A program made the position numbers and the translations under genes. From a virus, in IMG/VR virus record IMGVR_UViG_3300025534_000007, positions 5,657 through 69,656 of that record: a DNA stretch of 64,000 nt. The stretch is one strand, 5' to 3'. The notes beneath the pieces are model-generated. The model made no database searches. It was given only the letters and a program-made list of their open reading frames with translations, and was not told where the DNA came from. Below are positions 6,130 to 51,586 of the stretch, piece by piece. Every line of letters begins with the position of its first letter. Positions within the stretch are counted from its first letter, which is position 1.

Positions 6130-6591
6130 ATGGCATTCAAGGTCCGACTCGATCTCAACCGCGCGGTCTCGGTGACCCTGGTCACCGGGTACGACAAGAC
6201 CCGCCCGGGCAACTACTCCACCAAGGAGGTCATCCTCCTGCCCGGTGCGAAGGTCCCCGACAACGTCGACCCGTTCATCATCGAGCGCTGGAACGCAGGC
6301 GACCGTGCCCTGCGAGCCATCCTCGAAGTCGACGAGGACGGCGTTCCGGAGTCCCCGTTCGCGCCGAAGGCCGAGCAGGCCGCGCCCGAGCCCGAGCCGG
6401 AAGCCCAGACGACCGCGACGACCGACTACAGCTCGCTCACCAACGACCAGCTCGCGCAGCTCGCCGACGAGCGTGGTCTGGACGTGAAGCGTCTGGACGG
6501 CAGCGACGGAAAGCCTCGCAAGGAGGACTACGTCGCGGCCCTCAAGGCGGCCGACGCGGCGCCGGTCAACCCGTTCGGCGCCGTGGCCTGA
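6130..6591 (+). CDS. hypothetical protein with C-terminal HeH/Rho-N-like helical domain
   Basis: DYSSLTNDQLAQLADERGLDVK...KEDYVAAL; ends VNPFGAVA. Confidence 0.65.
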   Translation: MAFKVRLDLNRAVSVTLVTGYDKTRPGNYSTKEVILLPGAKVPDNVDPFIIERWNAGDRALRAILEVDEDGVPESPFAPKAEQAAPEPEPEAQTTATTDYSSLTNDQLAQLADERGLDVKRLDGSDGKPRKEDYVAALKAADAAPVNPFGAVA

Positions 6592-6619
6592 TCGCCACGA
6601 GCCGGTTCAGGACCCAGAT

Positions 6620-6660
6620 GAGGGGCGAGCGCAGCGAACTGCCTCGCCCCTCGCTTCTTC
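6620..6660 (+). terminator. intrinsic terminator-like hairpin
   Basis: GAGGGGCGAG/CTCGCCCCTC plus GCAG/CTGC stem, followed by GCTTCTTC. Confidence 0.6.
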
Positions 6661-6667
6661 TAGGCCG

Positions 6668-7438: not shown

Positions 7439-7443
7439 CCCCA

Positions 7444-8076: not shown

Positions 8077-8086
8077 CGGAGCACAC

Positions 8087-8305
8087 ATGAAGAACTACGT
8101 CTACAAAGGCAATCGCTCCGATCGAGATCTGACCTCAGAGATCGCCTTCGGTGATCAGCGGGTCGGGCTCGGCGGCACGATTCGTCTCTCTGACGAGGAC
8201 TATGAGCGCATCAGCAAGCTCTTCATCCTCGAAGCGGTCGAAGCGCCGAAGTCCGGTTCGGACGGTACTGTGAACAAGGAGTCCAGCCCCTCAAATAAGC
8301 GCTGA
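8087..8305 (+). CDS. small hypothetical virion-region protein
   Basis: GGAG RBS, ATG 8087, 72 aa (MKNYVYKGNRSD...). Confidence 0.55.
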   Translation: MKNYVYKGNRSDRDLTSEIAFGDQRVGLGGTIRLSDEDYERISKLFILEAVEAPKSGSDGTVNKESSPSNKR

Positions 8306-8350
8306 GACCGACCCGTTCAACGTGACACCTGAAAGGGGCTGATCAAGAAA

Positions 8351-8971: not shown

Positions 8972-8999
8972 CCCTCTCACCCGAGCCATGTGCGGCGAG

Positions 9000-9029
9000 C
9001 GGCCCGGCCTCAGCGCCGGGCCGTTTCGT
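9000..9029 (+). terminator. intrinsic terminator-like hairpin
   Basis: CGGCCCGGC-CTCAGC-GCCGGGCCG followed by TTTCGT. Confidence 0.65.
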
Positions 9030-9722: not shown

Positions 9723-9745
9723 CGCCAAGTCCAAAGGGAGCACAT

Positions 9746-10402: not shown

Positions 10403-10770
10403 ACGAACTCCTTGCCTGGCCTGAGGAGAAGTTCCACCTCTTCTACCAAGCGTTCGTTCGACGAAAGGCGGTAGAGCGAGTCCTCGAACAGAAGACGCTC
10501 AGCATCGCAACATTCACAGCGGCACTTTACGCCAACCCGAACTACGACTCGGAGTCAGGCGTGAAGCATCGGGCCGACCGGATCGAGCGATTCACCCGCG
10601 AGATGGAAGAGATCGTGCGCAAGTCGATCATCGAGATCTACACGGGTGAGAAGCCGAACACCGAAGACCCCGATTGGGAAGACCCGTTCTTCGCCGCGAT
10701 GGACCTGCCCTACGACCCGAAGACCGGAACGCCGAACCCGACTTACAAGACGACCGACGGGAGCCGATGA
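9746..10770 (+). CDS. tail assembly chaperone, frameshift product (gpGT-like) via -1 shift at 10285-10291
   Basis: The -1 frame from 10291 has no stop until TGA 10768-10770, which overlaps the tape-measure ATG. Confidence 0.75.
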
Positions 10771-13700: not shown

Positions 13701-16700
13701 CTGCTGCGCAGCGACGTCTTCAAGAACGCCTTCGCGCCGATGCTCGCGACGCTCAAGCAAGTGATCGCGCGCATTCCGATCCTCAACCGTCTCCTTCGCA
13801 ACACCGCAGGGGCCACGATCATCGGGCCTGGCGCAGGCGGTGGTCGCGGTTCCGGCGGAGGCCCCGCTGGCGGCGCCGGTGGAGGCACCGTCGTCGCAGG
13901 CCCGGGCGGTGGCCGGACGACGGCACCAAAGGGTGGGCGATTTGGGCGATCCGGCAACATCTTGCGCGCCGTCGGTCGCGGCGTCGGATGGTCCGCTCTC
14001 CTCTTCGGCGGCCTCGACTTCATCCAGAATCGCGACATCGTCAGCGCCCTCCATGCCGCCGACCCGTTCAACATCCTCGAAATCTTCGGCCTCAAGTCGC
14101 CGTTCGCCGTGGACGGCCCGCTCGGCCGCTACACCGGCCACGATGGCTGGAAGAACCTCTGGGCCGACATCACCGGCCAGAAGACCGAGATCGACAAGAC
14201 CAAGGACGCGATCAAGGGCTTCAACAAGGTCGTCGAAGATCTCGGCGGCATATCGCGCCTGCCGAGCAAGATGATCAACGAGCTGGCAAGGTACGCCGAG
14301 CAGCTCCAGGATCAAGCTGAGCGTAACGGCCTCAAGGACGCCGCCAAGAGCCTGTCCGAGTTCGCCCGCAACGCTCGCACAGCCGCCCAGGAAGCCAAGG
14401 CCACCGAGGACGCCATGCGCGGCCTGCGCCGCGAGGGCGTCAACCTCACCACCGACGTCGCCCGGACCATCGGCGCCGGAGCGGTCAGCGACATCGAGTG
14501 GGGCCTGCGCGGTCTGCGCCAGGGCATCCCCAGCTCGATGCGCGAGTTCCAGCGCATGCTCACCGAGCAGGTCAAGCTCATCCAGACCACGCTCGTCGAT
14601 GAGTCCGGGAAGCGCATGCCCGGCTGGTACGAGGCGATGGCCAAGACCTATGAGCTGGCCATCGAGAACATCAAGCGCCTGCGCGACGAGGGCAAGATCT
14701 CCGCCCGCGAAGCCAACCAGACCCTCGCCGAGCTGGAGCGCAAGTACCGCTCGTTCAGCGCCAAGAACCCCTTCGACATCAGCCGCGACTTCGCCAAGCA
14801 GATCGCCGAGGGCCGTGGCGAGCGCCGCAAGGCGATCGAAGACGTCATCAGCCAGATCGAGTCGATGCCCGCTCGCTTCCGTCGCACGGCTGCCGAGTCG
14901 GTCATCGGGCTCACCAAGGGCATGGAGTCTCGCGGCGAAGTGCCCAAGGGCACGGCCAAGCGCCTGGCCTACGAGATCGGCCAGCACTTCGCCGACATGC
15001 GCGACATCAACATCCGTCGCGCTCAGCAGATGGCTGAGGGGATCGCCAAGAACATCAACAAGATCCCCGGCTTCGTCGATCGCGCTCTGAACTGGATCGG
15101 CAACTTCCTCAAGACCGTCATCGACAAGCTCGACCTCAACGAGTTCGTCGACACGGCAAGCGACGCTTGGGACTCGGTCAAACGCTGGACCAGGAAGCTC
15201 CCCAGCATCATCACCCGCCGCGCGCAGGGCGGCCCGGTCATCGGCCCTGGCACCAGCACCAGCGACAGCATCCCCGCTCTGCTCTCCAACGGCGAACATG
15301 TCTGGACCGCCGAGGAGGTCAAGAACGCTGGCGGCCACGGCGCGGTCTACGCCCTGCGACGCATCTTCGGCGGCGGCGGGCAGAGCAACAAGGTCGGACG
15401 CTACGCCGCTGGCGGCGCGGTTACGCCTCCCGGCATGGCCGCCATCCCCGGCCAGGGCGGCAACGGCACCCCGGCGGGAGTCGAGTACGTCAATGTCGCA
15501 ATCGCGCGCCTCGTCCGCGATCTCATCCGGCGCTTCAACGTCCTTGTCACCGACGGCTTCGACCCGACCGGCCGCAAGCACAAGAGCGACGGGCACATGC
15601 GAACCGGCACCGCCGTCGACTTCGTCCCGAAGGACGGCAACTGGGACAACGTCGACAAGCTCGCACGCTGGGCCGTCAGCAAGGGTTACACCACCCTCTA
15701 CGACGGACGCTTCGGCACCACTGCTGCATCCGGCCACGGTCGCGGCCACCACCTGCATATCGACTTCGCCAAGGCCATCAGCGACGGCGCCGGGGACTCG
15801 GTCAGAAACACTCTCGAAGAGACCGTCCAGAACGTCGTCCGGCGCTACCGCCAGCTCACCGACTTCAAGCTGCGCGGCCCCTCGTCGCCGCTCAAGAACT
15901 CGCTCCAGGCGATCTTCAACGAGGCTGTCCGCGCGGCCAACAACGAACTCAAGCCCAAGCGTCGCCAGCGCGACCTCGCCGACTACGCAGACGACGGTGG
16001 AGGTTCGTCCTCTTCGCTGCCATCCGGCAGCACTGCCGCGCGGATCTACAGCTTCTTCCGCAGCAAGGGCTTTACCGACGCACAGGCCGCAGCCTGGGTC
16101 GGCAACGCCATCCAGGAGTCCGGCCTTCGACCGAACGTCGTCAACAACATTGGCGCCGCCGGACTCTTCCAGTGGCTCAACGAGCGTCGCGCTGGTCTGC
16201 ACGCCTTCGCTCAGCGTCGCGGCACGAGCTGGGCCAACGTCGACACCCAGCTCGCCTACGCCTGGCACGAGCTTCGCACGACTGAGCGCGCTGCCTACGC
16301 AGCCATCAAGGCCACGAAGTCGCTCGAAGCGGCCGTTCGCGCGATCACCGACCACTACGAGCGCCCCGGCAAGCACGAGGCGGCCTACGACACGCGCATC
16401 CAGTACGCCCGCGAAGCCCTGCGCAAGTATGCCAAGCGCTACGCCGCTGGCGGCCCGGTCCGAGGCCGTGGCACCGGCAAATCCGATGACATCCTCGCGC
16501 TCCTGTCAAACGGCGAGCACGTCTGGACGGACCAGGAGGTCCGCGCCGCAGGCGGACACAAGGCCGTCGAAGCCATCCGCCGACTCGTCCTCACTCCGCG
16601 CATCAGCGGCGACAGCGACATCGCTGGAGCTACGAACGCCATCAACGTCTTCCTGCGCGGCCTTGCGAAGTTCGCCAAGACTGCCAAGAAGGGCCCCGCA

Positions 16701-18702: not shown

Positions 18703-19500
18703 ATGGCAAACCCTCCTCGCGCACAGTTTGTCGACACCGTCCTGTACCGAGACCCGGTCACCGGGCAGGTCAGGATTCCGACGACGGCCAAGGTCACCGT
18801 CTACCTAGCTCCTCCGTTCGCTGGCGCCCCGCTCACCACGACCGCGCAGATCTACTCGGCTGAGACCGGGTCGTCTTCGCCTGGCAACCCGTTCCTCATC
18901 CCCGACGGACGCATCGAGTTCTTCGCCGGGCCCGGCTCTTATGACATCGTCATCGAGGACACGAGCCTCGACCCGCTCTTCGACACCCACGTGGTCCGAT
19001 GGGATGCCATCCCGACCGACGCTGGTCTGCGCAAGGAGATGCTCCCCGCCGACATCATCGAGACGGCGCACATCAAGGACGAGCAGGTCACGTTCAACAA
19101 GATCGGCTCTGGAGAGCTGCCCGCGATCACGGAATCCATCGGCTTCACCGTCCCTGGCCTCGTCCTCATCCCGACCAACAACACGACCGACATCGCGGTC
19201 AACCCAGGCAAGTTCTGGTGGTTCACGGCCACAGAGACCGCCTACATCGATCGCTGCATCTACCGCACGCATTCAGGCTCCGTCACCTTCAAGATCCAGG
19301 TCAACGGCACAGACATCAACTGGACTGGCTCGTCCGGCGGCGAGGTCATCACCGCCACGACGAGCGCCGCCACGACCACGCTCTCGACGCCGCTGGCGAT
19401 CTCGACCGGCTCCTACGTCCAGCTCATCCCGCTGAGCAACCCGAGCAACCAGGGCTACGGCCTCGCCGCTTCGCTCATCGCGCCGCACAAGCCCAACTGA
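18703..19500 (+). CDS. minor tail protein
   Basis: 265 aa immediately after the tape measure; beta-rich. Confidence 0.55.
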   Translation: MANPPRAQFVDTVLYRDPVTGQVRIPTTAKVTVYLAPPFAGAPLTTTAQIYSAETGSSSPGNPFLIPDGRIEFFAGPGSYDIVIEDTSLDPLFDTHVVRWDAIPTDAGLRKEMLPADIIETAHIKDEQVTFNKIGSGELPAITESIGFTVPGLVLIPTNNTTDIAVNPGKFWWFTATETAYIDRCIYRTHSGSVTFKIQVNGTDINWTGSSGGEVITATTSAATTTLSTPLAISTGSYVQLIPLSNPSNQGYGLAASLIAPHKPN

Positions 19501-27200: not shown

Positions 27201-27283
27201 GCGAGAACGTCCCCGGATGGCTCGATACCACGAGGAGCGTGGCTAGCCTATCTTGATAGCCACGTGCTATGCTCTCGCGCGCA

Positions 27284-27484
27284 ATGAGCGTGTCAGCGAA
27301 CCCCTTCATCCCTGAGATCCTGACTCCAGAGGAGGTCGCAAACCTCCTCCGCATCTCGCGCAAGACCGTCATGACCTACGCCCGCAGGGGCGACATCCCC
27401 AGCTTCAAGGTCGGCAAGTATGTCCGCTTCCGGCGCGAGGACGTTCAACGCTATGTGGATCAGGCGTCTGCTCATCCGTCCTGA
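27284..27484 (+). CDS. xis: excisionase-like helix-turn-helix protein
   Basis: ILTPEEVANLLRISRKTVMTYARRGDIPSFKVGKYVRFRREDV; adjacent to the integrase. Confidence 0.8.
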   Translation: MSVSANPFIPEILTPEEVANLLRISRKTVMTYARRGDIPSFKVGKYVRFRREDVQRYVDQASAHPS

Positions 27485-28800
27485 ATGCGGCTGAGTAGGT
27501 TGGCGTCCTCACGCTTGGGCATCCAGTGGATGTAGACCATCGTCGTCTGGATATCGGCGTGCCCCATCCACTGCTGGATTGTCGTCAGGGGGACGCCTGC
27601 CGCCGCACACATAGTGCCGAATGCATGGCGTAGGCCATGAAACTTCAGCTTCGGCAGCTCAATGCCTTCCTTGGCCTTGGCTTCGATCACCGCATCGCGA
27701 GCCTGGTTGTATTTCCGTTGCACGCAGCGTGGGTGGATGTGCTTGCGCGGGTCGCCGTGGTTGAAGACAAGCCAGGACGGATGCGCGCCTTCAGGAATCA
27801 AGGGCTCCAGGATGTCGCGAGCCTTATCGCTCATCGGCACGGTTCGAGCTACGCCAGACTTCGGGTCATCCTCGCCAACTTGAGGCCCTCCGTAGGTTTT
27901 CGGAGTTCGGATCACGCGACCGTCGAAGTCCAGGTTGCCTACCCGCAGCGCAATCAGCTCACCCAACCGCAGTCCGGTTAGAACACCCAAACGAATGATG
28001 TCGTCGATCGGGTGGTCGTCGCACGTTGCAGCGATCTCTTCGATGACATCCATGTCGTAGACCTTGATCAACTGGCGGCGCCGACGAGATGTTCGGCGCT
28101 CCATCTGATCCATCGGATTGCTGTCGATGTACTTCTTCGCGATTGCGTACTTGAAGATCGTCGACAGAACAGTCCTGTACTTGTCTCTTGTGCGCGTTCT
28201 GTATCCGGCGGATCGAAACTCTTCGTCAAGCTTCGCAATGTCGTCAGCCGTCACCTTGTCGATCGGTTTCGATCCGAGGAGTTCGTGCACGATGGCTGGT
28301 GTCTTCTTCACCCCGTCCCGTCGCGTTGTCGCACCCTTGGTTACGAACATCGACCTATAGCTGATGAAGGACGAGCGCTTCAAGTAGCCGTCTTCTACTT
28401 TGTCTTTGCAGTTCTCGACCCATTCATCGACAACCATTGCGAACGTGACGGTCGGCTTGCCGTTTGCATGGTTGGCGTCTCGCGCCTGATGAGCGCGCGC
28501 TATCTCAGCTTCGCGCTCGTCAATCGCAGCTTCGAGCGCCTTGATGGCGTCAGCATGAGTGAGGAACCCTTCGGGGCAACGATCGCGCCGCTTGGCCCAG
28601 AAGTTCTGCCAGGAGTCGTAGAGGCGCTTCTCGCGCAGCTCTTTGGCGACGAACGGGTTGTTGGCGACCGCTTCCTTCTTCTGGAGCCACGCCGGGCCAA
28701 GCTTCTTCTGTCGCTTGATTCCAGCTGAGTCGCGCCAGTAGCCATACCACTGCGGCCCGCTCTTGCGCTCGACGACGTTGAGGCTTCCGTGCGTGGGCAT
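27472..28800 (-). CDS. int: tyrosine integrase
   Basis: TGLRLGELIAL, KSG, FHGLRHAFGT, WMGHADIQTTMVY: catalytic R-K-H-R-H-Y present. Confidence 0.95.
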   Translation of the reverse strand: MPTHGSLNVVERKSGPQWYGYWRDSAGIKRQKKLGPAWLQKKEAVANNPFVAKELREKRLYDSWQNFWAKRRDRCPEGFLTHADAIKALEAAIDEREAEIARAHQARDANHANGKPTVTFAMVVDEWVENCKDKVEDGYLKRSSFISYRSMFVTKGATTRRDGVKKTPAIVHELLGSKPIDKVTADDIAKLDEEFRSAGYRTRTRDKYRTVLSTIFKYAIAKKYIDSNPMDQMERRTSRRRRQLIKVYDMDVIEEIAATCDDHPIDDIIRLGVLTGLRLGELIALRVGNLDFDGRVIRTPKTYGGPQVGEDDPKSGVARTVPMSDKARDILEPLIPEGAHPSWLVFNHGDPRKHIHPRCVQRKYNQARDAVIEAKAKEGIELPKLKFHGLRHAFGTMCAAAGVPLTTIQQWMGHADIQTTMVYIHWMPKREDANLLSRIQDG

Positions 28801-32496: not shown

Positions 32497-33846
32497 ATGG
32501 ATATCGAGCGTGCGTTGCTCAGTCGTTGCATCAACACTGGTGACGTCGAGACTCTGATCTCGCGTGGCGTCGGGCCTCAGCACTTCTCAGACCAGAGCAG
32601 GCCGATCTTTCAGACCATCGTCCGTCACCTGGCGCAGTACGGAGAGCCTCCAAGCCGGGAGGCCGTGCTCATGGAGCACCCGAACTACCGCCTCGACGCT
32701 CCGACCGACAGCGTCGAGTTCCTGCTCGACAAGTTCGTCGAGCACGTCCAGCGACGCGAGGCAGAGCAGGCTGTGATCGACCTGGCTGAGCGTCTGCGCG
32801 ACCCGCACGAGCAGGCGACGCCTGAGCTGCTCTTCATGGAGTACACCGAGCGCGTCGCGCAGATCATCCCCAACAGCAAGATCTCGCGGCTCAGCGATGC
32901 CCCCAAGCGCATCGACCTGTTCCGCAAGCAGCAGGAGCTTGGACGTCTCCCCGGCATCCCCATTGGCATTCCAGAGCTGGATCGCATCATCCTCGGCGTC
33001 CAAGGACACGAGCTGGTAGTCATCAGCGCGCCGTCGAGCTGGGGCAAGTCCACGTTCCTGCAACACATCTGCCTGTCGGCCTACCTCAACGGCGCCAGCA
33101 AGAAGGACACCCCGGCCTTCATCTCGCTGGAGATGGAGGGCGACGCGCTTCTGCGCAAGTTCGACACGATGGCGACCAACTTCTCCTACACGCTCCTGCG
33201 CGCGATGGAACTCGGCGTCGGCGACATCGAGCGCTGGGAGAAGTGGGGCGAGCGCGTCTCCAACGCGCCCAACGATATCATCATCATTGACGACATCGCC
33301 GAGTGCACCGTTGAGCGCGTCTTCGCCGAGGTCCTGCGATGGAAGCCGAACGCCATGTTCGTCGACTACTTCGGCATCATGACTCCCAGGCGCGTCGGCG
33401 GCGATGAGCACGTCTCGATGGCCAACATGGCCAAGGCGCTCAAGCGCATTCCGCGCCGCACCAACATCCCGCTCTTCACGGCTGCGCAGACCAACCGCTC
33501 CGGCTTCAAGGACGGCGTGCGCGCCGACAACGTCGCCGACACGATCGAGATCTTCCGCTCGGCCGACATCATGCTCGGCCTCCAGTGGGACCCCGATGAT
33601 AACCCGGAAGAGATGACCGTCGAGATCATCAAGAACCGCGATGGTCGCAAGGGCTCGGCAACGATCGCCTGGGACCTGGAGCACATGCTCATCGGCGAGA
33701 AGAAGAAGTGGGCCTCGCGCTCTGAGATGCAAGCCATGATCGGCGCCAAGATCGACCAGGTCCCGCAGCCTCAGAAGCCCAACCTCTCCGTCATCAACAA
33801 CCCCTTCGCGCAGGCCAACATCAACCCGGAGGTCGCTGCGGCGTGA
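32497..33846 (+). CDS. dnaB: replicative helicase, DnaB-like
   Basis: APSSWGKS Walker A, ISLEM, FVDY, AAQTNR, ADIMLGL, KNRDG. Confidence 0.9.
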   Translation: MDIERALLSRCINTGDVETLISRGVGPQHFSDQSRPIFQTIVRHLAQYGEPPSREAVLMEHPNYRLDAPTDSVEFLLDKFVEHVQRREAEQAVIDLAERLRDPHEQATPELLFMEYTERVAQIIPNSKISRLSDAPKRIDLFRKQQELGRLPGIPIGIPELDRIILGVQGHELVVISAPSSWGKSTFLQHICLSAYLNGASKKDTPAFISLEMEGDALLRKFDTMATNFSYTLLRAMELGVGDIERWEKWGERVSNAPNDIIIIDDIAECTVERVFAEVLRWKPNAMFVDYFGIMTPRRVGGDEHVSMANMAKALKRIPRRTNIPLFTAAQTNRSGFKDGVRADNVADTIEIFRSADIMLGLQWDPDDNPEEMTVEIIKNRDGRKGSATIAWDLEHMLIGEKKKWASRSEMQAMIGAKIDQVPQPQKPNLSVINNPFAQANINPEVAAA

Positions 33847-35000: not shown

Positions 35001-35810
35001 ATGCCTAAGGGATTCGAGAGCGCGAAGAAGGTCGGTGGTCGGCGCACCGGCTACGGTTTCATGCCACGCCCGCGCGGGATCAACTACTTCCGCCTCAAGC
35101 TCGACGGTGAGTCCGCCGTCATCCGGTTCCTCGACAACCACGACGAGATCAGCTGGGTGCGTCAGTGGCGCCTCCCGCCGTCGGCGAACTTCCAGTACGG
35201 CGAGTACGTCAACGCCGTCGACCAGTACGAGGACGGGACGCCGGACCCCGGCTACGCGGCCAACCTCCGCGCCTCGGTCCGCGCCTACCCGATCGTCATC
35301 TGGCGTAACGCGCCGGTCTACCAGCGCGACAACGATGGCAAGCTCGTCACCGGCAGCAACGGCGAGCGGATCATCATGGGCTACCAGGACCAGCTCGCGG
35401 TCTGGGAGATCTCGTACCGCACCTACGAGATGCTCGGCGAGCTGGACAAGAAGCAGCGCGCCAGCTCGCGCCAGGCTGGGCCCGAGGTCGGCCTCCCCTT
35501 CGTCGACTTCGAGGTCACGCGCAAGGGGCGCGGCACCGACACGCAGTACGTCTTCTACCCCGAGGGCGTGCCGGGCCAGATGTCGACGCAGGACCAGCAG
35601 CTCGTCGCGCAGTTCAAGCAGCAGTACGTGCAGGCGGTCGAGCAGCTCACTAAGGTCCCGACCTACGACCAGCTCGCCAAGTACATCAACGAGGGCGTTC
35701 CGTACCAGGATCAGCGAGCGCAGTCGCAGGAGGACAACAACGTCACCCAGATGGTGTCCAACAACGCGATCGGTCTGGACGGGGTCAACCCGTTCCTGAA
35801 CGTCGCCTGA
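35001..35810 (+). CDS. putative single-stranded DNA-binding protein (phage type)
   Basis: YFRLKLDGESAVIRFLD...DFEVTRKGRGTDTQY; located after the primase. Confidence 0.6.
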   Translation: MPKGFESAKKVGGRRTGYGFMPRPRGINYFRLKLDGESAVIRFLDNHDEISWVRQWRLPPSANFQYGEYVNAVDQYEDGTPDPGYAANLRASVRAYPIVIWRNAPVYQRDNDGKLVTGSNGERIIMGYQDQLAVWEISYRTYEMLGELDKKQRASSRQAGPEVGLPFVDFEVTRKGRGTDTQYVFYPEGVPGQMSTQDQQLVAQFKQQYVQAVEQLTKVPTYDQLAKYINEGVPYQDQRAQSQEDNNVTQMVSNNAIGLDGVNPFLNVA

Positions 35811-35847: not shown

Positions 35848-36360
35848 ATGCCAGCAGCAAAGAGAGGCAGACGTCGGGCGACGGCCTCGTCAGGCCGCAA
35901 GCCCGGCGCCACCCGCTCCGGGCGCGTCTACAAGCTCTACGCGCTTGGTGACGACGGCAACGAGCTGACTTATCTCGCCGATTCGCCTCCCACCACAACC
36001 GGCCAGGCCGCTGTCCTGGCCGCTGTGAAGGAGGGCACGGTCGAGGCCGGTGTCAAGATCGTCCCGCTCCCCGAGTCGGCGCTGTCGGCGACCGAGATCG
36101 AGGCGCAGGAGATCCGCGAGACCGTCTACACGATCAAGGCCAGCGACGAGCCCAAGAGGCGCGGAGGCCGCCGTCGCAGGGTCGACGACGCAGGCGAGGA
36201 GGAGACGACGACTCGCCGCGCCACGAAGGCCAAGAGCGCCAACGGACGTCGCCGGTCTAGGACGGCCAGCGAGCCTGTTGAGAAGCCCACCGCTCCGGCG
36301 CCCGAGCCCCCGGAGCCTCCGGCGACGCCGGATAACCCCTTCACCGCCCAGGCAGAGTAG
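35848..36360 (+). CDS. hypothetical protein with basic and Pro-rich low-complexity tracts
   Basis: AAAGGAGG RBS; Arg-rich ends; ends PDNPFTAQAE. Confidence 0.65.
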   Translation: MPAAKRGRRRATASSGRKPGATRSGRVYKLYALGDDGNELTYLADSPPTTTGQAAVLAAVKEGTVEAGVKIVPLPESALSATEIEAQEIRETVYTIKASDEPKRRGGRRRRVDDAGEEETTTRRATKAKSANGRRRSRTASEPVEKPTAPAPEPPEPPATPDNPFTAQAE

Positions 36361-41450: not shown

Positions 41451-42527
41451 ATGCCTGTCGACCCCAGCCTTCTCCCCCAGATCCTCAAGGAAGCCGAGAA
41501 GCGCTACGGCCAGAAGATCTACACCGGGCGCGCTCGACCGAGCGTCACGCGCATCCCATTCCCATCCCTGGAGATGAACCTCGCCACGCACGGTGGGGCT
41601 CCGATGGGCCGCATTATCCGTCTGTGGGGCGGTCCGTCGTCGTGCAAGACTCTCAGTGCCATCGGGCTCGCCGCATCCGCGCAGAAGTTCCGCACCGATG
41701 AGTTCCCCGATGGCCTGAGTGTCGCCTTCTACGACCTCGAAGGCGCATTCGACTACGACTTCGCTGAGAAGGCGCTCGGCCTCGACACGAGCGACGACAA
41801 GTTCGTTTACGTCGACGCCAGCGTGATCGAGGACGTCTCGCGCATCCTCGATTCGCTCCTGCACGCGGTCAATATCCACATCATCGACTCCACGACTTAC
41901 GGGATCTCCGAGCACAAGATCGAGGCCGGGGTCAGCAGCCGTCAGCCAGGCTTCGACGCCATCGCCTGGAAGGAAGCCTTCAAGCTGGCGCGCGAGAACA
42001 TGGACCCGATGCAGAACATGATCGTCTGCATCTCGCACGAGACCCAGGACTTCAAGACCAGCGCGATCAAGGCGTCCGGCGGTCGCTTCCTTGACTACTC
42101 CGCTTCGATGTCCATGCGCCATCGTGTCGCCGCGAAGCTCTACCGAGGCTCCGACGGCGAGCTGGGCGAGACGCGCCCCAAGGACGGCAACGACCCGCTC
42201 ACCGGCAGCGTCCGTGTCGACGGCTACTTCCTGGAGATCGAGATCGTCAAGACCAAGGTCAGCCGACCTTTCAACAAGGCGAACCTGATCTACGACGTTG
42301 ACAGGATGCAGTTCGACCGGCGCTACGAGCTGATGAAGGCCGGTCAGTTCCTCGGCGTTATCCAGAAGAGCGGCAACTACTACTACGTCCCGACGAGCGA
42401 TAAGGCCATCAACGGGCAGAGGGCGCTCAAGAAGCGCATCGAGGAAGACGACGTCCTCGTCATGCAGATCTACGAGGCCGCCGACAGGTGGATCGCTGAG
42501 CAGCAGGCCAACGAGCGCGCGGCGTGA
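41451..42527 (+). CDS. recA: RecA/UvsX-like recombinase
   Basis: GGAPMGRIIRLWGGPSSCKT, YDLEGAFD, IIDS, SGGRFLDY; divergent phage type. Confidence 0.85.
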   Translation: MPVDPSLLPQILKEAEKRYGQKIYTGRARPSVTRIPFPSLEMNLATHGGAPMGRIIRLWGGPSSCKTLSAIGLAASAQKFRTDEFPDGLSVAFYDLEGAFDYDFAEKALGLDTSDDKFVYVDASVIEDVSRILDSLLHAVNIHIIDSTTYGISEHKIEAGVSSRQPGFDAIAWKEAFKLARENMDPMQNMIVCISHETQDFKTSAIKASGGRFLDYSASMSMRHRVAAKLYRGSDGELGETRPKDGNDPLTGSVRVDGYFLEIEIVKTKVSRPFNKANLIYDVDRMQFDRRYELMKAGQFLGVIQKSGNYYYVPTSDKAINGQRALKKRIEEDDVLVMQIYEAADRWIAEQQANERAA

Positions 42528-42835
42528 CTCAGTCGGACGGCGACATCGTCACGGCGTACTGGAAGCCTGGCTTCGGGGTTGAAGGCGTCGCCTGTCGCGG
42601 CTATCTCGTCCGCAACGAGAACGGCCTGATCGAAATGGTGGACGAACGTCGGATGCGCCACCATCAGCTATCCACTAAGTTTGTCTCCATCGTTAGTGAC
42701 AAGGAGATCGAGGCGAACCCGTTCGTAACAGCGCAGCAACAGGAGGGAGACGGCATGAACATCAACGACAACCCGTTCGCCAACGCGAACCCATTCGCTC
42801 TGGCAAACAACCTCTTCGCGCAGGCGACCAGCTGA
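42524..42835 (+). CDS. small protein with NPF-repeat tail; possible internal start at 42755
   Basis: EANPFV...MNINDNPFANANPFALANNLFAQATS. Confidence 0.65.
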   Translation: MTQSDGDIVTAYWKPGFGVEGVACRGYLVRNENGLIEMVDERRMRHHQLSTKFVSIVSDKEIEANPFVTAQQQEGDGMNINDNPFANANPFALANNLFAQATS

Positions 42836-43962: not shown

Positions 43963-45561
43963 GTGACCCGAATCACCGATGTGAACCTTGCAACGCAGGT
44001 GATCGACGCCTGCATCAAGGCGAACGTCCACAAGGACGGCATGCCGGATGACGATCAGAAGAAGATCGACACGGCCAACCGCCTCATCGACCTCGCCCAT
44101 CAGGCGAAGGCCGCCAACGTCGGCGAGCCGTTCGCCAGCGACCTCATCAACATGGTTGAGAGCGCCGTCCAGGGTGGCCAGCAGGCTGAGCCGCAGCAGG
44201 CTGACCCCAACCCGTTCGCCGCTGGCAACCAGCCGCAGCCTGCCCCTGCTCCCACTCCCGCCCCGGCTCCCGCCCCGGCTCCCGCCCCGGCTCCGGCGCC
44301 CGCTGCCGTTCCGGCCCCGGCGCCCGCTCCTGAGCCCGCCGCGCCGCCCACCCCTGCCGAGGTCCCGGCCCAGGCGACCGCTCAGCAGGCCCCGCAGCAG
44401 CTCCAGCAGCAGGAGCCGGAGACGCCCAAGCTCGAAGAGCCGTGGCCGGGCTATGACACGCTCGGCGTCGACGAGCTGATCGCCCGCATGGAGGCGTTCA
44501 CCGACGAGCAGATCGACTACGTCAAGAAGTACGAGGCGCAGAACGGGCAGCGCGCACAGATCCTCAACTTCGAGCGCCACCCGATGACGGAGGTCCCGCA
44601 GCAGCAGGCGTCCGTCGCCCCGGCTCCGCCCGAGCCCCAGGAGGCGTCCCAGACTCCTGCCCAGCCGCAGGAGCAGACCGGGCAGGACCTCGCGCAGGTC
44701 GAGCCGTGGCCCGGCTACAAGGGCTCCACGATCAACACGATCATGGACCGGGTCAACCAGGCGCTCGCCCAGGAACCGGCGAACGCGGCCAAGCTGTTCG
44801 CCCACGTCTTCGAGTACGAGCGCGCCCACGACAACCGCAAGCGCCTGCTCAAGAAGCTCTCCGACCTCGCCAAGAACGGCGTCGCCGTCGACACCCAGCC
44901 GCAGGAGCAGGCCCAGACGGACGTCGAGCAGGTCAAGCAGGCCGAGGGCCAGGACGTCGTCCCCACGCCGCCGTTCGCTCAGCAGGCCGAGCAGCAGGCC
45001 GAGCAGCAGCCCGAGCCCGCATCGGCCCCGGCCCAGCCGCAGCCTGCCGCCGAGGCGCCCGAGCCGACCCAGGACAATGGCGAGAGCATCCAGCCCATCG
45101 AGGGCGGCGCCACCCAGCGGGCTATCGAGGCCGTCGCCACCAAGCTCCCCGCCCCGCCGCCGTGGGAGGGTGGCTTCCCGCAGGTCGGCCCCGACTTCAC
45201 CGCCTACAGCGACGTCGACATCGCCCGCTTCCAGTCGCAGTTCGCCAGCCTCTACGCCTACGGGTTGCGCGAGCTGGCGATCGCAGAGGGTTACGCCGCC
45301 GACGCCAAGGATGAGGCCGACGCGCTTGTGCGCGAGTACATCGCCTCTCGGGACTGGCCCGCTAAGGCGACGAACGCTCAGCAGGAGGTCGAGGCGACCC
45401 AGAACGTCCCGCAGATCCCCGAGTGGCGCAAGCGCCAGAAGGAGTGGACGCGCGTCGCCCGCCAGATCCAGGCGCTCGTCGATGGCTACAAGGAGATCGC
45501 CGACCGCCTCTCTCGGGAGCAGACCCGCCGCGACAACGAGCGCATCTCCGCTCGCGGCTGA
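43963..45561 (+). CDS. modular Pro/Ala/Gln-rich protein with a duplicated PWPGY domain and C-terminal helical domain
   Basis: 532 aa; two EPWPGY...YE...R...L repeats; ends LSREQTRR... Confidence 0.75.
   Translation: MTRITDVNLATQVIDACIKANVHKDGMPDDDQKKIDTANRLIDLAHQAKAANVGEPFASDLINMVESAVQGGQQAEPQQADPNPFAAGNQPQPAPAPTPAPAPAPAPAPAPAPAAVPAPAPAPEPAAPPTPAEVPAQATAQQAPQQLQQQEPETPKLEEPWPGYDTLGVDELIARMEAFTDEQIDYVKKYEAQNGQRAQILNFERHPMTEVPQQQASVAPAPPEPQEASQTPAQPQEQTGQDLAQVEPWPGYKGSTINTIMDRVNQALAQEPANAAKLFAHVFEYERAHDNRKRLLKKLSDLAKNGVAVDTQPQEQAQTDVEQVKQAEGQDVVPTPPFAQQAEQQAEQQPEPASAPAQPQPAAEAPEPTQDNGESIQPIEGGATQRAIEAVATKLPAPPPWEGGFPQVGPDFTAYSDVDIARFQSQFASLYAYGLRELAIAEGYAADAKDEADALVREYIASRDWPAKATNAQQEVEATQNVPQIPEWRKRQKEWTRVARQIQALVDGYKEIADRLSREQTRRDNERISARG
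44257..44292 (+). repeat. 3x 12-bp tandem repeat CCCGCCCCGGCT encoding a (PA)n linker
   Basis: Exact tandem copies at 44257, 44269, 44281. Confidence 0.85.
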
Positions 45562-45582
45562 CCTGCCTTCATAGTCGGACAG

Positions 45583-45609: not shown

Positions 45610-45620
45610 TCATCACGCCC

Positions 45621-46058: not shown

Positions 46059-46063
46059 ACTAG

Positions 46064-46702: not shown

Positions 46703-47284
46703 TTGGCAGGCATGGCACATATCATCATGGGGATGGATCTGTCCGACAACCCATTCGTGCAGGCGACCAACCCCTTCGTCGACAAGGACATGCAGATCGT
46801 GGCCTCCGAGGCGAAGGCTGCGATGGAGCGTGCCAGCAAGAATGGTCGCAAGCTCCGACCGGACGGAACCCCCTACTCCAGCGACCCGTCCATCCGCATG
46901 CGCCAGCTTCACGAGGACGGCCGCGCCGGACCAGCGTTCGGCCATCTCGGCGGAGCGCGACGCAAGGCAGACCGCCGCGCTACCGAGGTCGTCGCCGAAG
47001 CCGCACGCGAGCACGCCGAGAAGATCCGCGACGTCCTGATCGACGGGCTCGACGAGGACCGTCCCTACACCGTGCGGATGAAGTCCGCTCTTGAGCTGCT
47101 CAAGATCGACCAGCAGGACGCCGCCCAGCAGCTCGAACGTGAGAAGGCCGAGTTCGAAGCCATGAACAAGGCCCAGCTCGTCGACAACATCATGCGGATG
47201 CTCAACGATCTCCAGCGCGCTGGTCAGATCACAGCCGAGATCGAGGAGTACGCTGACGCACAGGTGGTCGATGACGACGCTTGA
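46703..47284 (+). CDS. putative terminase small subunit (start uncertain)
   Basis: Helical 193-aa ORF overlapping the start of terminase large; assigned by synteny. Confidence 0.55.
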   Translation: MAGMAHIIMGMDLSDNPFVQATNPFVDKDMQIVASEAKAAMERASKNGRKLRPDGTPYSSDPSIRMRQLHEDGRAGPAFGHLGGARRKADRRATEVVAEAAREHAEKIRDVLIDGLDEDRPYTVRMKSALELLKIDQQDAAQQLEREKAEFEAMNKAQLVDNIMRMLNDLQRAGQITAEIEEYADAQVVDDDA

Positions 47285-49112
47285 TCTCACGAAGATCGAT
47301 CCGAAGACCCTCCTCGGGGCCAGCAAGACCGACCTCATCAAGCTCGCCACCGAGCTGTCCGAGCTGAAGGCGCGCGCCGGACAGATCGGTCCGCAGACCC
47401 CTGACGAGCTTCACGAGTACATCCATAAGAACTATGGAATCTGGGTCCCGCGCAAAGCCGTGACGCCGGGACACTGCGCGCCTTTCGACTTCCTTGCAGA
47501 CGCATACTTTCAGAAGGAGACCAGCCAGCTCGTCATCGCGTGCCGGGAGGGTTCGAAGACCTTTACGGTCGGCCTCCTCCAGGTGCTCTTTGCCCGCTTC
47601 TTCCCTGGCTACGAAGGGCTCACCGCAGGCGCGATCGAGTACCAGACCGTCCGCGCTTACCAGGCCATCAGGAAGCTCAACAACATCTTCGGCAAGGACC
47701 AGGTCGAGGACTCCCAGCAGAGCCGGACCATCTGGAAGAACGGTTCCACGGTCGAGATCCTCACGATGACCTACGAGGCGATGAACGGACCGCACACGTG
47801 GTTCCTTCATCGCGACGAGATTGAGCTTGCTCGACGCAACGCCTTCGACGAGGCCGACAGCATCACCCGGTCAGGCGTCACCAAGGACGGGCGCTCTTTC
47901 CGCGCACACGACGTCCTGACCTCCACGCGCAAGCTCGCCCGAGGCAAGGTCCAGGAGCTGCTCGACCAGTGCGAGGAGGCCGAGCGCGCCGGTCGCAAGC
48001 CGCCTTACAAGGTCTACAAGTGGGGTGTTGCCGAGACGGTTCAGAACCAGCCCAACTGCCGCTATCACGCGCCGCCGGGGACCCCCGAGGACAAGCTGTG
48101 CCCCTGCAACCAGTACGTCAACGGCTTCATCGGCGACCCGAAGAACGGTATCCCGCGCACGTTGGAGGCCGTCTGCGGCGGGCGCTTCGGCAAGTCGGAT
48201 GGCTGGCGGCCGCTTGAAGACATCGCCGGGAAGTTCATGAAGACGAGTCAGGCGATGTGGGATGCGCAGTACGAGTGCAAGAAGCCCGCGTCCGAGGGCC
48301 TCATCCTCGTCAACTACGACGAAGCCATCAACGGCATCCGCAACTACATCCCTGACCCCGCGAACGGACGCATCTTCAACTCCAACGACTTCGGCGGCGC
48401 CAACCCGTTCGCATCGCACTGGTACCAGCTCCTTGATCGCGACGTCGAGGTCCGCAGCTTCGCCAACGAGCCCAAGGTCCTGCCGAAGGGCTCGCTCGTC
48501 TGCTTCGACGAGATTTACCGCGCCGATATCGGCAACAACGAGTTCTTCTCGATGATCGTCGCCAAGGAGCGTCAGTACAAGGAGCTGTTCGGCGACGAAT
48601 GGAAGGTGTTCGAGCGCTACGCTGACATCGCCGGTCGCGCGCAGCGCAAGGACATGCTCAACCACGATCCGCCGCTGCCCACCGTCTGGCGGATCGAGCG
48701 CGACGTCGAGTCGCACATCAACACGATCAACGAGCGCATCGACCAGGGTCTCCTCTACGTCGACGTCGACAAGTGCCCGAAGTGGAACGAGGAGGCCCAG
48801 TTCTGGCAGCGCGACCCGAACACGGGCCGGGAGCTGCAAGTCGCCAACCACGCGATGGCTGCGCTCCGCTACGCCGCCGAAAACATCAAGGCGCTCATCC
48901 AGCTGGAGCGCAAGGCTGGACGACGAAACGACGGCCCAGTGGCCCCCGGCAGCGAGCACGTCGCCGAACTCAGCCGTGTGCCCGTCACTGGACCGGCGCG
49001 AAGCGCCATTACTGAACTGCCGCACGACATCCCCATCCACCGCCAGCCGGTTCGCCCCGGCGACGGCCCGCACGCCGGGCGCAGACATATCATAATGGAC
49101 GATATATGGTAG
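47271..49112 (+). CDS. terL: terminase large subunit
   Basis: ACREGSKT (Walker A-like), NGSTVEIL, NGPH...HRDEIE (Walker B), NDFGGANPF, YADIAG, NHAMAALRYA; precedes the portal. Confidence 0.85.
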   Translation: MTTLDLTKIDPKTLLGASKTDLIKLATELSELKARAGQIGPQTPDELHEYIHKNYGIWVPRKAVTPGHCAPFDFLADAYFQKETSQLVIACREGSKTFTVGLLQVLFARFFPGYEGLTAGAIEYQTVRAYQAIRKLNNIFGKDQVEDSQQSRTIWKNGSTVEILTMTYEAMNGPHTWFLHRDEIELARRNAFDEADSITRSGVTKDGRSFRAHDVLTSTRKLARGKVQELLDQCEEAERAGRKPPYKVYKWGVAETVQNQPNCRYHAPPGTPEDKLCPCNQYVNGFIGDPKNGIPRTLEAVCGGRFGKSDGWRPLEDIAGKFMKTSQAMWDAQYECKKPASEGLILVNYDEAINGIRNYIPDPANGRIFNSNDFGGANPFASHWYQLLDRDVEVRSFANEPKVLPKGSLVCFDEIYRADIGNNEFFSMIVAKERQYKELFGDEWKVFERYADIAGRAQRKDMLNHDPPLPTVWRIERDVESHINTINERIDQGLLYVDVDKCPKWNEEAQFWQRDPNTGRELQVANHAMAALRYAAENIKALIQLERKAGRRNDGPVAPGSEHVAELSRVPVTGPARSAITELPHDIPIHRQPVRPGDGPHAGRRHIIMDDIW

Positions 49113-51586
49113 AGCTGGTCGACAATCCGTTCGCGCACATCAACCTCGCGCAAGACCCGACCAAGGACCCCTCCAAGGTCACGCAGGCGCTCCAGCGCTC
49201 GGCGAAGGGCAAGGACACCGCGCCGACGGCTCAGGAGGCGACCACCGCACTCCCGCAGGCCACGCTCAACCGCGCCACCGGGCAGTTTGACGTCACGCGC
49301 ATCCCGCTGTCGATGCTGCGCCAGATGCAGCGCGACCCGATACTCGCGTTCGCTCTCTTCTACATCCGCGCGCAGAACCTCCGCGCACGCTGGCACATCG
49401 AGTCCTCCGACCCGCAGGTCGCTGGCTTCATTGACCGAGCGCTGCGTGAGATCTACCCGAGCATCATCAACAACTACATCCTCAAGCTCGTCTATGGATT
49501 CCAGGCGTGCGTCAAGCGCTTTACGACCGGCGAGGTGATCGACTGGACCTACATCCATCCAGAGACCGGTGAGGAGACCCGCGTCTGGGACGAGGGCAAC
49601 ATCAACGCCATCATCTGGAAGCCGTTCATCGGACTGCCGCCCGAGGCCGTCGAGCCTGTCTGGAACTCCAGCGGCGAGTTCGACGGCATCAAGTACACCC
49701 CGGCCAACGCATCCTACGCTTCGGCAGGCATCACCCGGTCCGGAGAGGAGCGCACGTTCGACGTTTTCCACTCCCTGTGGTTCGTCAACGAGCGCGAATC
49801 CGTGCACAATTCCATCTGGGGATACCCGCGTCTGGGCTATGCCTACCGCTACTGGTGGTCCTTCTGGTTTGCCTGGGGCCTGGCCGACCGCCACTTCGAG
49901 GTCGACGCCGACCCGCCCGTCATCACCCGCTTCCCCACCGAGGACGACGGCAGCGGCATGAAGAACAGCCAGCGCGCGCTCGCGATCGGTGCACAGCTTC
50001 GCTCCGGCTCCACGATCGCGCTCCCGTCCGACCCCTACACCGACTCTTTCGACGGCAGGACCGTCAACATCCAGAAGTGGGACATCGACGTCCTGAAGTC
50101 CAGCGGCAACTTCCAGGCGTTCCACGATCGCTTCGAGCAGCTCATCGCCCTCATGCTGCGCGCCATGATGATCCCGCCGGAGGCGTTCGAGGCGCGCGGC
50201 GGGTCGGCTGGATACAACTCCACCAGCCAGCTCCAGGAAGCCTTCGTCATGTCCCAGATCGTGCTCATGCAAGAGCTTGACTGGGACCTCAACCGCTACG
50301 TCATCCCGCAGCTCGTGATGGCGAACTTCTCCGATCGCAAGGCCACTGCCCGCAAGGTCACGCGCGGCTTCGACGTCGAGGACATCGAGTTCGCCAAGCT
50401 CCTGCTCCAAGGCAAGGCCAACTCAGCCAGCGGTGACCTCCCCATTGACTACGGCGCCCTGCTTGAATCCGTCGGCATCCCGCGTCTGTCGGCTGACGCG
50501 CTGGCCGAAGCCAATGCCCGCATCGAGCAGCAGGCCCGCGAGGCGCGCCCCGAGCCCCAGCAGGCCGCCCCAGGCCGCGCAGGCGTCAACGAGAACGGCC
50601 TCTACTACGCACCGCGCGACACGATCCATCTCGACACGATCCAGATGGAGGCCGAGAAGGCGTTCTTCAACGAGCTGACCCAGGTCGGCCCGCTCAAGGA
50701 CCCCGAGATCATGGTCTACGCACGCCAGCTCCGCCAGATCTGGAACGAGGCCCTGAACTTCGACTACAGCGTCGCAGCTACGCTCCTCCAGGACTACGGC
50801 GATAACCTCGATCTCGACGAGACCTTCTTCGAGCGCTTCATGCGCCGCGTCAAGAACCGCGCGCAGGACCTCGCCTTCCGATCGCGCCGCGTGCTGGAGC
50901 AGATTATGCGACGCGCCTCTAACGTCGAGCTGGAGCGCGCCGGTCTGCGTCAGGACTACTTCTGGGACCCGGTCGGCAACGATGACGCCTCGCGCTACCT
51001 CCAGGAGCGCGCCAACATCATGGTCTCCGATATCTCCGAGACCACGCGCGACGAAATCCGCGCCTTCCTGCGCGATCAGGTCGCCAAGGGCACGCCGATC
51101 CAAGACCTCCCCGGCCTGCTTCGAGCGCACTTCGACATGGTCAGCCAGTGGCGCGCCGATCGCGTCGTCCGCACAGAGATCGGCAAGGCGTACAACATGG
51201 CTACCCTCTTCGCCGCGCAGGACGCAGGGGTCGATCAGGTCCAGGCGATCGACGCGCAGCTCGGGCCCCAGCGCAGCGACCCCGAGTGCATCCGCCGCAA
51301 CGGGCGCCTCTTCACGGTCAACGAGGCGTTCGCCGAGACGTTGAAGGAGCACCCCTACGGCACGCTCCAGTGGCGCATCCCGCGCAAGCGCATCGCGATC
51401 ACGAAGCTCTCGCAGCGCGCCAAGACCAAGGCCACCTACGTCGAGCACGATGACCACGTCGAGGTCAAGCTCTCCGACCGCCTCAGCGAGCAGGAGCGCA
51501 ACATGTACCTCCTGGCGGTCGTCGATCGCATCGAGCTGGACGCCAAGCTCGCCAAGTCCGACGACGAGTTGCGATCGGCTTTCTAA
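49106..51586 (+). CDS. portal protein (DUF935/Mu gp29-like) fused to a MuF-like minor head domain
   Basis: GYPRLGYAYRYWW...LDWDLNRYVIPQLVMANF portal part; RADRVVRTEIGKAYN...CIRRNGRLF...EHPY MuF part; no stop between them. Confidence 0.8.
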   Translation: MVELVDNPFAHINLAQDPTKDPSKVTQALQRSAKGKDTAPTAQEATTALPQATLNRATGQFDVTRIPLSMLRQMQRDPILAFALFYIRAQNLRARWHIESSDPQVAGFIDRALREIYPSIINNYILKLVYGFQACVKRFTTGEVIDWTYIHPETGEETRVWDEGNINAIIWKPFIGLPPEAVEPVWNSSGEFDGIKYTPANASYASAGITRSGEERTFDVFHSLWFVNERESVHNSIWGYPRLGYAYRYWWSFWFAWGLADRHFEVDADPPVITRFPTEDDGSGMKNSQRALAIGAQLRSGSTIALPSDPYTDSFDGRTVNIQKWDIDVLKSSGNFQAFHDRFEQLIALMLRAMMIPPEAFEARGGSAGYNSTSQLQEAFVMSQIVLMQELDWDLNRYVIPQLVMANFSDRKATARKVTRGFDVEDIEFAKLLLQGKANSASGDLPIDYGALLESVGIPRLSADALAEANARIEQQAREARPEPQQAAPGRAGVNENGLYYAPRDTIHLDTIQMEAEKAFFNELTQVGPLKDPEIMVYARQLRQIWNEALNFDYSVAATLLQDYGDNLDLDETFFERFMRRVKNRAQDLAFRSRRVLEQIMRRASNVELERAGLRQDYFWDPVGNDDASRYLQERANIMVSDISETTRDEIRAFLRDQVAKGTPIQDLPGLLRAHFDMVSQWRADRVVRTEIGKAYNMATLFAAQDAGVDQVQAIDAQLGPQRSDPECIRRNGRLFTVNEAFAETLKEHPYGTLQWRIPRKRIAITKLSQRAKTKATYVEHDDHVEVKLSDRLSEQERNMYLLAVVDRIELDAKLAKSDDELRSAF

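Follow-up and report, generated by a model that had tools for sequence, protein, structure and literature searches.

An Asn-Pro-Phe motif at the termini of replication, packaging and integration proteins of an uncultured phage: probably a docking motif derived from the tail of a gp32-type SSB

The subject of this analysis is a three-residue peptide, Asn-Pro-Phe (NPF), that recurs in the proteins of an uncultured phage. The window, by which we mean the whole stretch of 64,000 nucleotides that was analyzed, comprises bases 5657-69656 of the 84,553-bp IMG/VR virus record IMGVR_UViG_3300025534_000007, which is rated complete by CheckV, and its GC content is ~64%. We found that NPF is enriched in the encoded proteins, is selected as a peptide, prefers protein termini and is kept at orthologous positions while the flanking residues drift. 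The explanation that we favor, and that we consider probable, is that NPF serves as a short linear docking motif, originating in the tail of the SSB (single-stranded DNA-binding protein) of the phage, carried on disordered termini and spread to other proteins; that it binds at all, and the identity and number of the proteins that read it, we infer. Protein functions were assigned by Pfam and PHROG profile scans of ~50 of the roughly 100 phage proteins.

A six-frame scan of the window recovered exactly 16 NPF sites, all in frame and identical to the 16 that had been listed, without extra ones, in a first-pass annotation made from the sequence alone, whose gene calls also proved to be sound. That annotation had estimated that one or two copies would arise by chance, and the expectation that we computed from amino acid composition is 1.2 for the window (Poisson P=3e-13 for the 16 observed). 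NPF ranks first of all tripeptides in the window by eight orders of magnitude, the runner-up having P=3e-5. The comparison with shuffled controls that the same annotation had proposed gave the same picture for the whole record, where 18 NPF were counted against 1.36 expected and where 1000 within-protein shuffles produced a mean of 1.4 and a maximum of 7, none of the 1000 reaching 18; the smallest P of any tripeptide in any of these shuffles was 1.3e-8. A single tripeptide, ADL, outscores NPF in the whole-record test (57 vs 14.6 expected), its source being pentapeptide-repeat proteins located outside the window. The enrichment is specific, as DPF, SPF, NPY, NPW, NPL, NAF, QPF and similar tripeptides occur at expectation in the whole record.

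The position of the copies within the proteins is also far from random, with 12 of the 18 sites lying within 25 residues of a terminus, compared with 22% of all residues (P=7e-5). The terminal segments that bear the motif are Pro/Gln/Ala-rich or extreme, and the only one that was modelled, the SSB tail, is disordered, which agrees with the earlier proposal that the motif sits outside recognizable folds. At the DNA level, the degenerate pattern AAYCCNTTY has 16 matches, all in frame 0 of genes supported by GC content at third codon positions and none in the other frames or antisense, compared with 2.1 +/- 1.2 matches (maximum 6) in dinucleotide shuffles. The codons vary as well, eight synonymous 9-mers being used across relatives, AT-rich ones included. 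A DNA-level motif was ruled out on these two grounds, every match being in a coding frame and synonymous codons varying, and selection on the peptide rather than the DNA, as first proposed, is borne out. The extended context is [LIV]-x-[DTN]-N-P-F-[A/V/L/M/F], to which distant relatives add basic residues, for example NPF-M-R-K-R. We also considered a longer F-x-x-A (BRC-like) form of the motif and rejected it, since it is enriched in the copies of this phage and not in the DnaB and SSB tails of its relatives, many of which stop 1-2 residues past NPF.

The SSB (269 aa, 35001..35810, plus strand, NPF codons 35787-35795) ends in ...GLDGV-NPF-LNVA and had no Pfam match. An AlphaFold2 (AF2) model built from 85 sequences has a predicted local distance difference test score (pLDDT) >90 in the core and of 52-62 in the tail (residues 233-269). 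The top PDB matches of this model in Foldseek are the gp32 proteins of T4 and RB69 (8GME, 1GPC and 2A1K; prob 1.0, TM-score 0.44-0.56), its structure neighbours in the ESM Atlas include a PF08804 cluster, and a C...CPGC motif is conserved in the family. Judged by the model, the protein is a T4 gp32-type SSB, an OB fold with a Zn-binding subdomain; the first-pass annotation had thus been right in calling it an SSB, the fold being that of gp32 and not that of the bacterial OB tetramer.

A search of 1.8 billion cluster representatives for this SSB returned 104 homologues, 84 of them full-length. Within the last 30 residues of the 84 full-length representatives, NPF is found in 34 (one of which also has NPW), [S/x]PF in 21 and N[LIMV]F in 12, and the remainder have mostly S-A-F. 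The tail is present and non-acidic with a conserved tip; in the alignment of 85 sequences the last part of the consensus reads NPF, and conservation of F265 reaches at least 90%. NPF is therefore the C-terminal tip of the whole gp32-type SSB family, and the link that had been drawn to bacterial SSB tails ending in Pro-Phe was apt. In both SSB and DnaB tails the Phe is followed by 1-25 residues, position -1 is often D, T or N, an acidic run is absent, and distant relatives have basic residues past the motif. The SSB tips of L011 and L017, two of the related loci that we fetched, end in SANLFLNAQ, and a 103-aa protein of our phage ends (42797-42835) in ...NPFALANNLFAQATS, also an NLF. Some relatives thus have NLF where other SSB tips have NPF, and the Pro is therefore not strictly required.

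The DnaB-type replicative helicase (449 aa, 32497..33846, plus strand, NPF codons 33799-33807; Pfam DnaB_C) carries the motif in a C-tail that reads ...SVIN-NPF-AQANINPEVAAA. All 25 full-length homologues at 40-66% identity keep one or two NPF within ~25 residues of the C-terminus, and the flanks are unrelated. At 33-37% identity the homologues show NPW in its stead, frequently as two copies and in basic surroundings; in a few, the tail has [DS]-S-P-F or S-x-F before Lys/Arg. Downstream of the SSB gene, a basic Pro-rich protein of 170 aa (35848..36360, plus strand, NPF codons 36334-36342) ends in ...PATPD-NPF-TAQAE, and at the same position the related locus L163 encodes a 224-aa Pro-rich protein that ends in ...SRPD-NPF-AE. 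The replication module of L163 therein bears C-terminal NPF on DnaB (two copies), on an SSB-like protein and on this following Pro-rich protein, and the corresponding tails of L162, on DnaB and an RNase H, are NPW.

Further proteins are also marked. The 103-aa protein mentioned above (42524..42835, plus strand), whose gene overlaps the recA stop codon, has three NPF (42716, 42770 and 42788) in addition to its terminal NLF, and small proteins with 2-3 copies lie 3' of recA in two relatives as well, an 84-aa protein with NPF at each end in L005 and a 113-aa protein with 2 NPF in L044. A Cas4-like protein of L007 has a C-terminal NPF, and DnaE of L170 ends in ...ADNPFMKAAA. The RecA/UvsX-type recombinase itself (41451..42527, plus strand; Pfam RecA) is never tagged: it is present in 31 fetched related loci and in four of the five low-GC relative records that were searched, and a terminal NP[FW] was seen in no homologue. 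A further carrier is a 532-aa beads-on-a-string protein (43963..45561, plus strand) with repeats, long P/A/Q linkers and a conserved NPF of its own (44209-44217) between its N-terminal domain and a (PA)n linker. Its C-terminal domain (residues 385-532) was modelled as a long helical hairpin with pLDDT 93, for which T4 UvsY accounts for nine of the top 10 PDB matches in Foldseek. Conservation of this domain extends to 23 related loci, in all of which its gene lies between those of the Cas4-like protein and TerS, and its family has a conserved ERLSRExTMR motif where UvsY, which assembles as a hexamer or heptamer, has the LKARLDY ('KARL') motif that binds single-stranded DNA (ssDNA). On the basis of the model the domain is possibly UvsY-like, which together with the gp32-fold SSB and the RecA-like recombinase would make a T4-style recombination trio in a phage with DnaE and DnaB.

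In the packaging module the motif is found at N-termini. The putative TerS (46703..47284, plus strand), assigned by its position and its overlap with TerL, begins MDLSD-NPF-VQAT-NPF-VDKD (NPF codons at 46748 and 46769). One or two copies are present in the first ~30 residues of TerS in seven of eight close relatives, L002 being the exception and L003, L004, L005, L168, L169 and L170 being among those that have them, and the flanks around the kept motif differ (for example MGDSYNPFLDQPVQNPFMDQ and VSDNPFIKTAPPPANPFITE). The portal-MuF fusion protein (826 aa, 49106..51586, plus strand, NPF codons 49124-49132; PHROG portal and Pfam Mu_F) begins MVELVD-NPF-AHINLAQ. Its N-terminal NPF is again found in seven of eight close relatives (including L002, L004 with two copies, L005, L168, L169 and L170; L003 has NPY), with flanks that differ in the same manner (for example MVVNLAENPFLPMTDNPFVNVMLAQ and NYLVDNPFISVALAQ). 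A prospective test was made with L168, L169 and L170, which were newly fetched and whose TerL proteins are 51-63% identical to ours: each of them carries two copies at the N-terminus of TerS, a single copy at that of the portal and another at residues 77-82 of the homologue of the 532-aa protein, and in two of these loci NPF outranks every other tripeptide. In two other loci, L029 and L067, it is TerL itself that has an N-terminal NPF.

Portals below ~45% identity have no N-terminal NPF. In its place the distant portals (L009-L078) have a conserved short peptide of another type at the N-terminus, either as ...[LM]A-x-F-A-[DE]-x-N-G or as G-G-M-V-x-L-[AV]-[DE]-S, and downstream of it a second conserved stretch, (T/S)PEEAAxIR(S/A)SVxxKEQAPS. 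The different short peptide that the distant portals keep at this end hints at a family-wide docking element at the portal N-terminus, which would have been turned into NPF in the present subclade.

The two proteins of the integration module also carry the motif. The excisionase Xis (71 aa, 27269..27484, plus strand, NPF codons 27299-27307; Pfam HTH_17) has an N-terminal ...SVSA-NPF-IPEILT immediately before its helix-turn-helix, and in L167, an independent relative, the Xis N-terminus reads VVA-NPF-MPSLLT. The tyrosine integrase (442 aa, 27472..28800, minus strand) has NPF at residue 48 (28651-28659), in the loop after its N-terminal arm-type beta-hairpin. Its nearest homologue, P0108 (42% identity), which is encoded on the same contig as the L167 Xis, has ...ERTVE-NPF-LVD in the same loop, and NPF occurs anywhere in only 3 of 120 integrase homologues. 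The expectation that NPF would be kept in aligned homologues while its flanks drift thus holds for DnaB, SSB, TerS, portal, Xis and integrase.

Of the remaining copies, two lie just outside the window and are both terminal, in a 93-aa protein (record 69824-70105, minus strand) with the C-terminal end SNPFAQAAQVTT and in a 103-aa protein (record 71042-71353, minus strand) with the N-terminal start (V)IDLADNPFVEL. Another is in the C-tail (...AAPV-NPF-GAVA) of a 153-aa protein encoded 3' of the capsid gene (6130..6591, plus strand, NPF codons 6568-6576), which has a weak PHROG match to endonuclease VII and for which no homologues were recovered. Three copies appear to be incidental. The NPF in TerL (48402..48410, plus strand) is in the conserved fold motif DFGG(T/A)NP(H/F) and is incidental, as had been suspected, because the consensus of 28 TerL homologues at this site is GGTNPH. 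The copy in the minor tail protein (18886..18894, plus strand) is also incidental because it is in a well-aligned folded region and the L167 orthologue (43% identical) has GNSF there. The copy in the 2675-aa tape measure (14766..14774, plus strand) is probably incidental because it is mid-protein, with both ends 1300 residues away, and because ~1.4 copies are expected by chance in the genome, a number with which a total of three incidental copies is in line.

The extreme enrichment is a property of the close subclade only. More distant relatives with the same core genes have 0-3 NPF per 20-kb locus, and in their whole records the NPF DNA pattern is only 2-3-fold above a reversed-pattern control. 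The motif family spans phages of 35% to 66% GC.

We propose the following mechanism for a docking motif derived from the SSB tail. The oldest and most conserved carriers would be the C-terminal tip of the gp32-type SSB and the C-tail of DnaB. The tag would have been copied from SSB and DnaB to other proteins, which in relatives are an RNase H, one DnaE, TerL, a Cas4-like nuclease and the multi-copy small proteins, and the present subclade would have added the N-termini of TerS and portal, Xis, the integrase loop and the linker of the possibly UvsY-like protein, to reach a dozen proteins. The Phe of each tag may insert into a pocket on a conserved phage protein that is itself without a tag, or on a few such proteins, and docking would then concentrate replication, recombination, resolution, integration and packaging proteins on the replication and recombination intermediates that are covered by SSB. 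Docking of this kind has precedents in T4, where UvsX, UvsY, Dda, gp59 and the polymerase are recruited by the C-terminal domain of gp32, and in T7, where gp2.5 and gp4 dock on the polymerase by C-terminal Phe tails that they share.

As candidate readers we infer, in an order that is only approximate, first the gp32-like SSB core, then the RecA-like recombinase, next the UvsY-like domain and after it the primase and SF2 helicase; the SSB core, recombinase, primase and helicase are candidates because they are conserved and never tagged. The phage DnaE (Pol III alpha, 1096 aa; window 37651-40941) requires separate comment. In E. coli alpha the linker between the HhH and OB domains bears the internal clamp-binding motif, and in the phage protein and its relatives no such linker separates the HhH domain (GAFD...R) from the OB domain. 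The absence of this linker makes DnaE attractive as a reader, and we rank it lower because L170 tags DnaE itself. A co-fold of DnaE residues 1-955 (from a 23-row alignment) with the DnaB tail (408-449) scored 0.01, a result that counts neither for nor against.

Several observations weigh against a docking motif of this kind. No binding partner of NPF was found, and the full-length AF2 model of the SSB shows no docking of the tail, which stays at low confidence, on its own core. The tag on L170 DnaE argues against the polymerase as a universal reader. There is no NPF in the fetched loci of L020-22, L037, L046 and L047 despite the same core genes. The tip is unlike known SSB tips in being non-acidic, in not being at the very C-terminus and in occurring also at N-termini. 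Lastly, the sequence past NPF differs by lineage, being basic in distant relatives and neutral here, and the readers may therefore differ between lineages too. The Pfam scans of ~50 of the roughly 100 phage proteins showed no EF-hand or EH domain and no clamp, and PHROG likewise gave no clamp or EH domain. In full-text searches of the literature, NPF was not described in connection with the tails of phage SSB, gp32 or helicase proteins.

The first-pass annotation had gone further and interpreted NPF as a single address code, in which one reader binds all of the tags and couples replication, recombination, integration/excision and packaging at one DNA 'factory'. We find this plausible in outline and give it a minority share of our belief. 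The hub would most plausibly be the gp32-type SSB on ssDNA, or else the 532-aa UvsY-like/HeH protein, which is multivalent and would act as scaffold or condensate. The same core motif is on 12 or more functionally linked proteins; packaging parts have been tagged independently by lineage (TerS and portal here, TerL in L029 and L067); small proteins with several copies exist; and the 532-aa protein combines repeats and long linkers with its own conserved NPF. It also counts in its favor that the partners of gp32 in T4 include the polymerase, RNase H, helicase loaders and UvsX/Y, and reportedly the terminase as well. Against it, no reader was found, the SSB tail does not dock on its own core in the AF2 model, and the polarity of T4 is reversed in that many readers bind to one tail.

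A second alternative, which we consider distinctly improbable, is that the tags dock on a conserved host factor. This could be the sliding clamp, part of the host SSB interactome, or a protein of division or of the membrane, and one way would be mimicry of the FtsZ peptide that binds SepF. The best clue to the host is an IS605-type element with an intact TnpB (window 59992-61197 and flanks, minus strand) inside the phage genome. Kitasatospora, Streptomyces, Nonomuraea and Frankia, together with related genera, have copies with 65-75% identity to this TnpB, whose closest relatives are in Actinomycetes genomes only. Because of this kinship, and because named integrase homologues are exclusively from Solirubrobacteraceae, the host is probably an actinomycete. 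The C-terminal peptide of actinobacterial FtsZ ends in ...VPPFMRR and binds SepF, and the NPF-[ML]-R-K-R tails of distant relatives (the SSB of L008 and L012, and contexts in the SSB family) resemble it. The missing clamp-motif linker of DnaE would also leave the contact with the host replisome open. Speaking against host docking, the motif family extends over phages of 35% to 66% GC, and so probably over very different hosts, and NPF matches neither the clamp motif (QL[SD]LF) nor the requirement of the SSB tip for a free C-terminal Phe.

It is still less likely, and in our judgment very improbable, that NPF termini are read by a host or phage protease that times the removal of replication, integration and packaging proteins. 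The phage proteins O, Xis and MuA are protease substrates by way of terminal motifs, and several C-termini of our phage have nonpolar, ssrA-like endings (VAAA, GAVA and LNVA); yet long retention on a structural portal, TerS, SSB and DnaB would be hard to explain, many tails stop 1-2 residues past NPF without an ssrA-like ending, and the N-terminal, loop and linker copies are unlike a C-degron. That the motif has no peptide function, and is a by-product of composition, low-complexity linkers or a DNA/RNA signal (AACCCNTTC), could draw on a Pro codon that varies at the third base only and on the preference for AAC and TTC in a 64% GC genome, and is effectively refuted by the confinement of all 16 DNA matches to frame 0, the eight synonymous 9-mers, AT-rich ones included, the shuffles that never attain the observed count and the retention at orthologous termini amid unconserved flanks.

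The rest of the genome is organized as follows. The structural module has RuvC, an E-type capsid protein, a tail tube protein, the tape measure and tail proteins. The tape measure (window 10674-18701) is unusually long and contains an internal phage tail lysozyme domain at residues 1787-1919. The integration module consists of Xis and the tyrosine integrase, and is followed by an early/middle operon (window 29.3-47.3 kb) that encodes an SF2 helicase (window 29324-30718), a MerR-like protein, DnaB, a DnaG-type primase and the SSB-like protein, and then a dCTP deaminase, DnaE, RecA, the Cas4-like protein and the 532-aa repeat protein. The packaging module comprises the putative TerS, TerL and the portal-MuF fusion, and further genes encode a methyltransferase, a GT2-TPR-GT4 protein, a GT4 glycosyltransferase and an amidase, in addition to the IS605 element. 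No tRNA or tmRNA was found within the window.

The GT2-TPR-GT4 gene (window 53553-57387), often accompanied by the methyltransferase and GT4 genes, adjoins the portal gene in 21 related loci, low-GC ones included, and looks like a candidate family-wide virion-glycosylation cassette. We considered NPF as a glycosylation sequon for this cassette and rejected it, as the cassette is also found in relatives with no or few NPF in the fetched loci (for example L017 and L008) and the tag is located on non-virion proteins. The pentapeptide-repeat proteins form a cluster on the minus strand outside the window (L166:6479-10479, which is record 76078-80078) and could be DNA mimics or anti-defence proteins.

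The TerL homologues outline a family of uncultured phages to which the gene order is common; among the closest relatives, P0007, P0008, P0012, P0017, P0019, P0021 and P0024 are represented by contigs of 72-87 kb. Among named phages the TerL matches reach only 24-25% identity (Microcystis phage Mvi-JY20 and Myxococcus phage Mx1), so no close kin were found there, and a TerL search of GTDB species representatives found no prophage kin. Several TerL homologues (P0010, P0011, P0015, P0021, P0038, P0042 and P0047) are 870-990 aa long, with intein or LAGLIDADG domains, and an intein is also present in the DnaE of one relative (L169:1-3064).

Docking on SSB tails is a central organizing principle of bacterial, T4 and T7 replication. 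The non-acidic tip NPF marks a large family of uncultured phages that have a gp32-type SSB, DnaB, DnaE and RecA, and in one subclade it is on packaging and integration proteins and on N-termini as well as C-termini. Changing NPF to AAA would give a concrete, mutable handle on how a phage links DNA synthesis, recombination and packaging, and the NPF signature could predict which proteins of unknown function belong to the network. Proteome-wide counting of tripeptides can in this way reveal short linear motifs of viruses.

The closest known system is that of T4. The C-terminal domain of T4 gp32 is the docking site for UvsX, UvsY, Dda and gp59 (PMC3016280, PMC11551737), and its C-terminal peptide has been crystallized on Dda (PMC11551737, PDB 8GME). 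Our phage is alike in having an SSB of gp32 fold with a disordered C-tail whose tip is conserved family-wide, and in encoding a RecA/UvsX-type recombinase and possibly a UvsY-like protein. It differs in that its tip is N-P-F plus 1-10 residues, whereas the A-domain tail of T4 is acidic, and in that the tip is also on the helicase and on packaging, integration and other proteins. In T7, the SSB gp2.5 and the helicase-primase gp4 share C-terminal aromatic Phe tails that dock on the gp5 polymerase. Here too one C-terminal motif, in which a Phe is critical, is common to the SSB and the replicative helicase, and a hexameric helicase would present 6-12 copies of it; however, the T7 tails are acidic with Phe as the last residue, whereas those of our phage are neutral or basic and Phe is not last, and the phage polymerase is a bacterial-type DnaE that one relative tags itself. 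Given these close functional precedents, gp32 docking in T4 and the shared gp2.5/gp4 tails in T7, the earlier statement that no such phage system had been described was too strong.

The tip of the bacterial SSB (D-D-D-[IL]-P-F-COOH) shares with NPF a Pro-Phe core after a disordered linker and is likewise portable, on helicases and other replication proteins. It differs in that the phage fold is that of gp32 and not the homotetrameric OB, in that the phage tip has no acidic run and no free Phe carboxylate, and in that the phage has N-terminal, internal-loop and linker copies, many carriers as against one carrier with many readers. The eukaryotic NPF/EH system has the identical tripeptide core, likewise displayed in disordered segments and frequently as tandem copies. 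The ~50 phage proteins scanned yielded neither an EH nor an EF-hand domain, however, the context preferences differ and NPW, NLF and SPF substitute for NPF in relatives; the likeness is almost certainly convergent. What is known, then, is docking by SSB tails, and what is new here is a non-acidic NPF motif on far more carriers.

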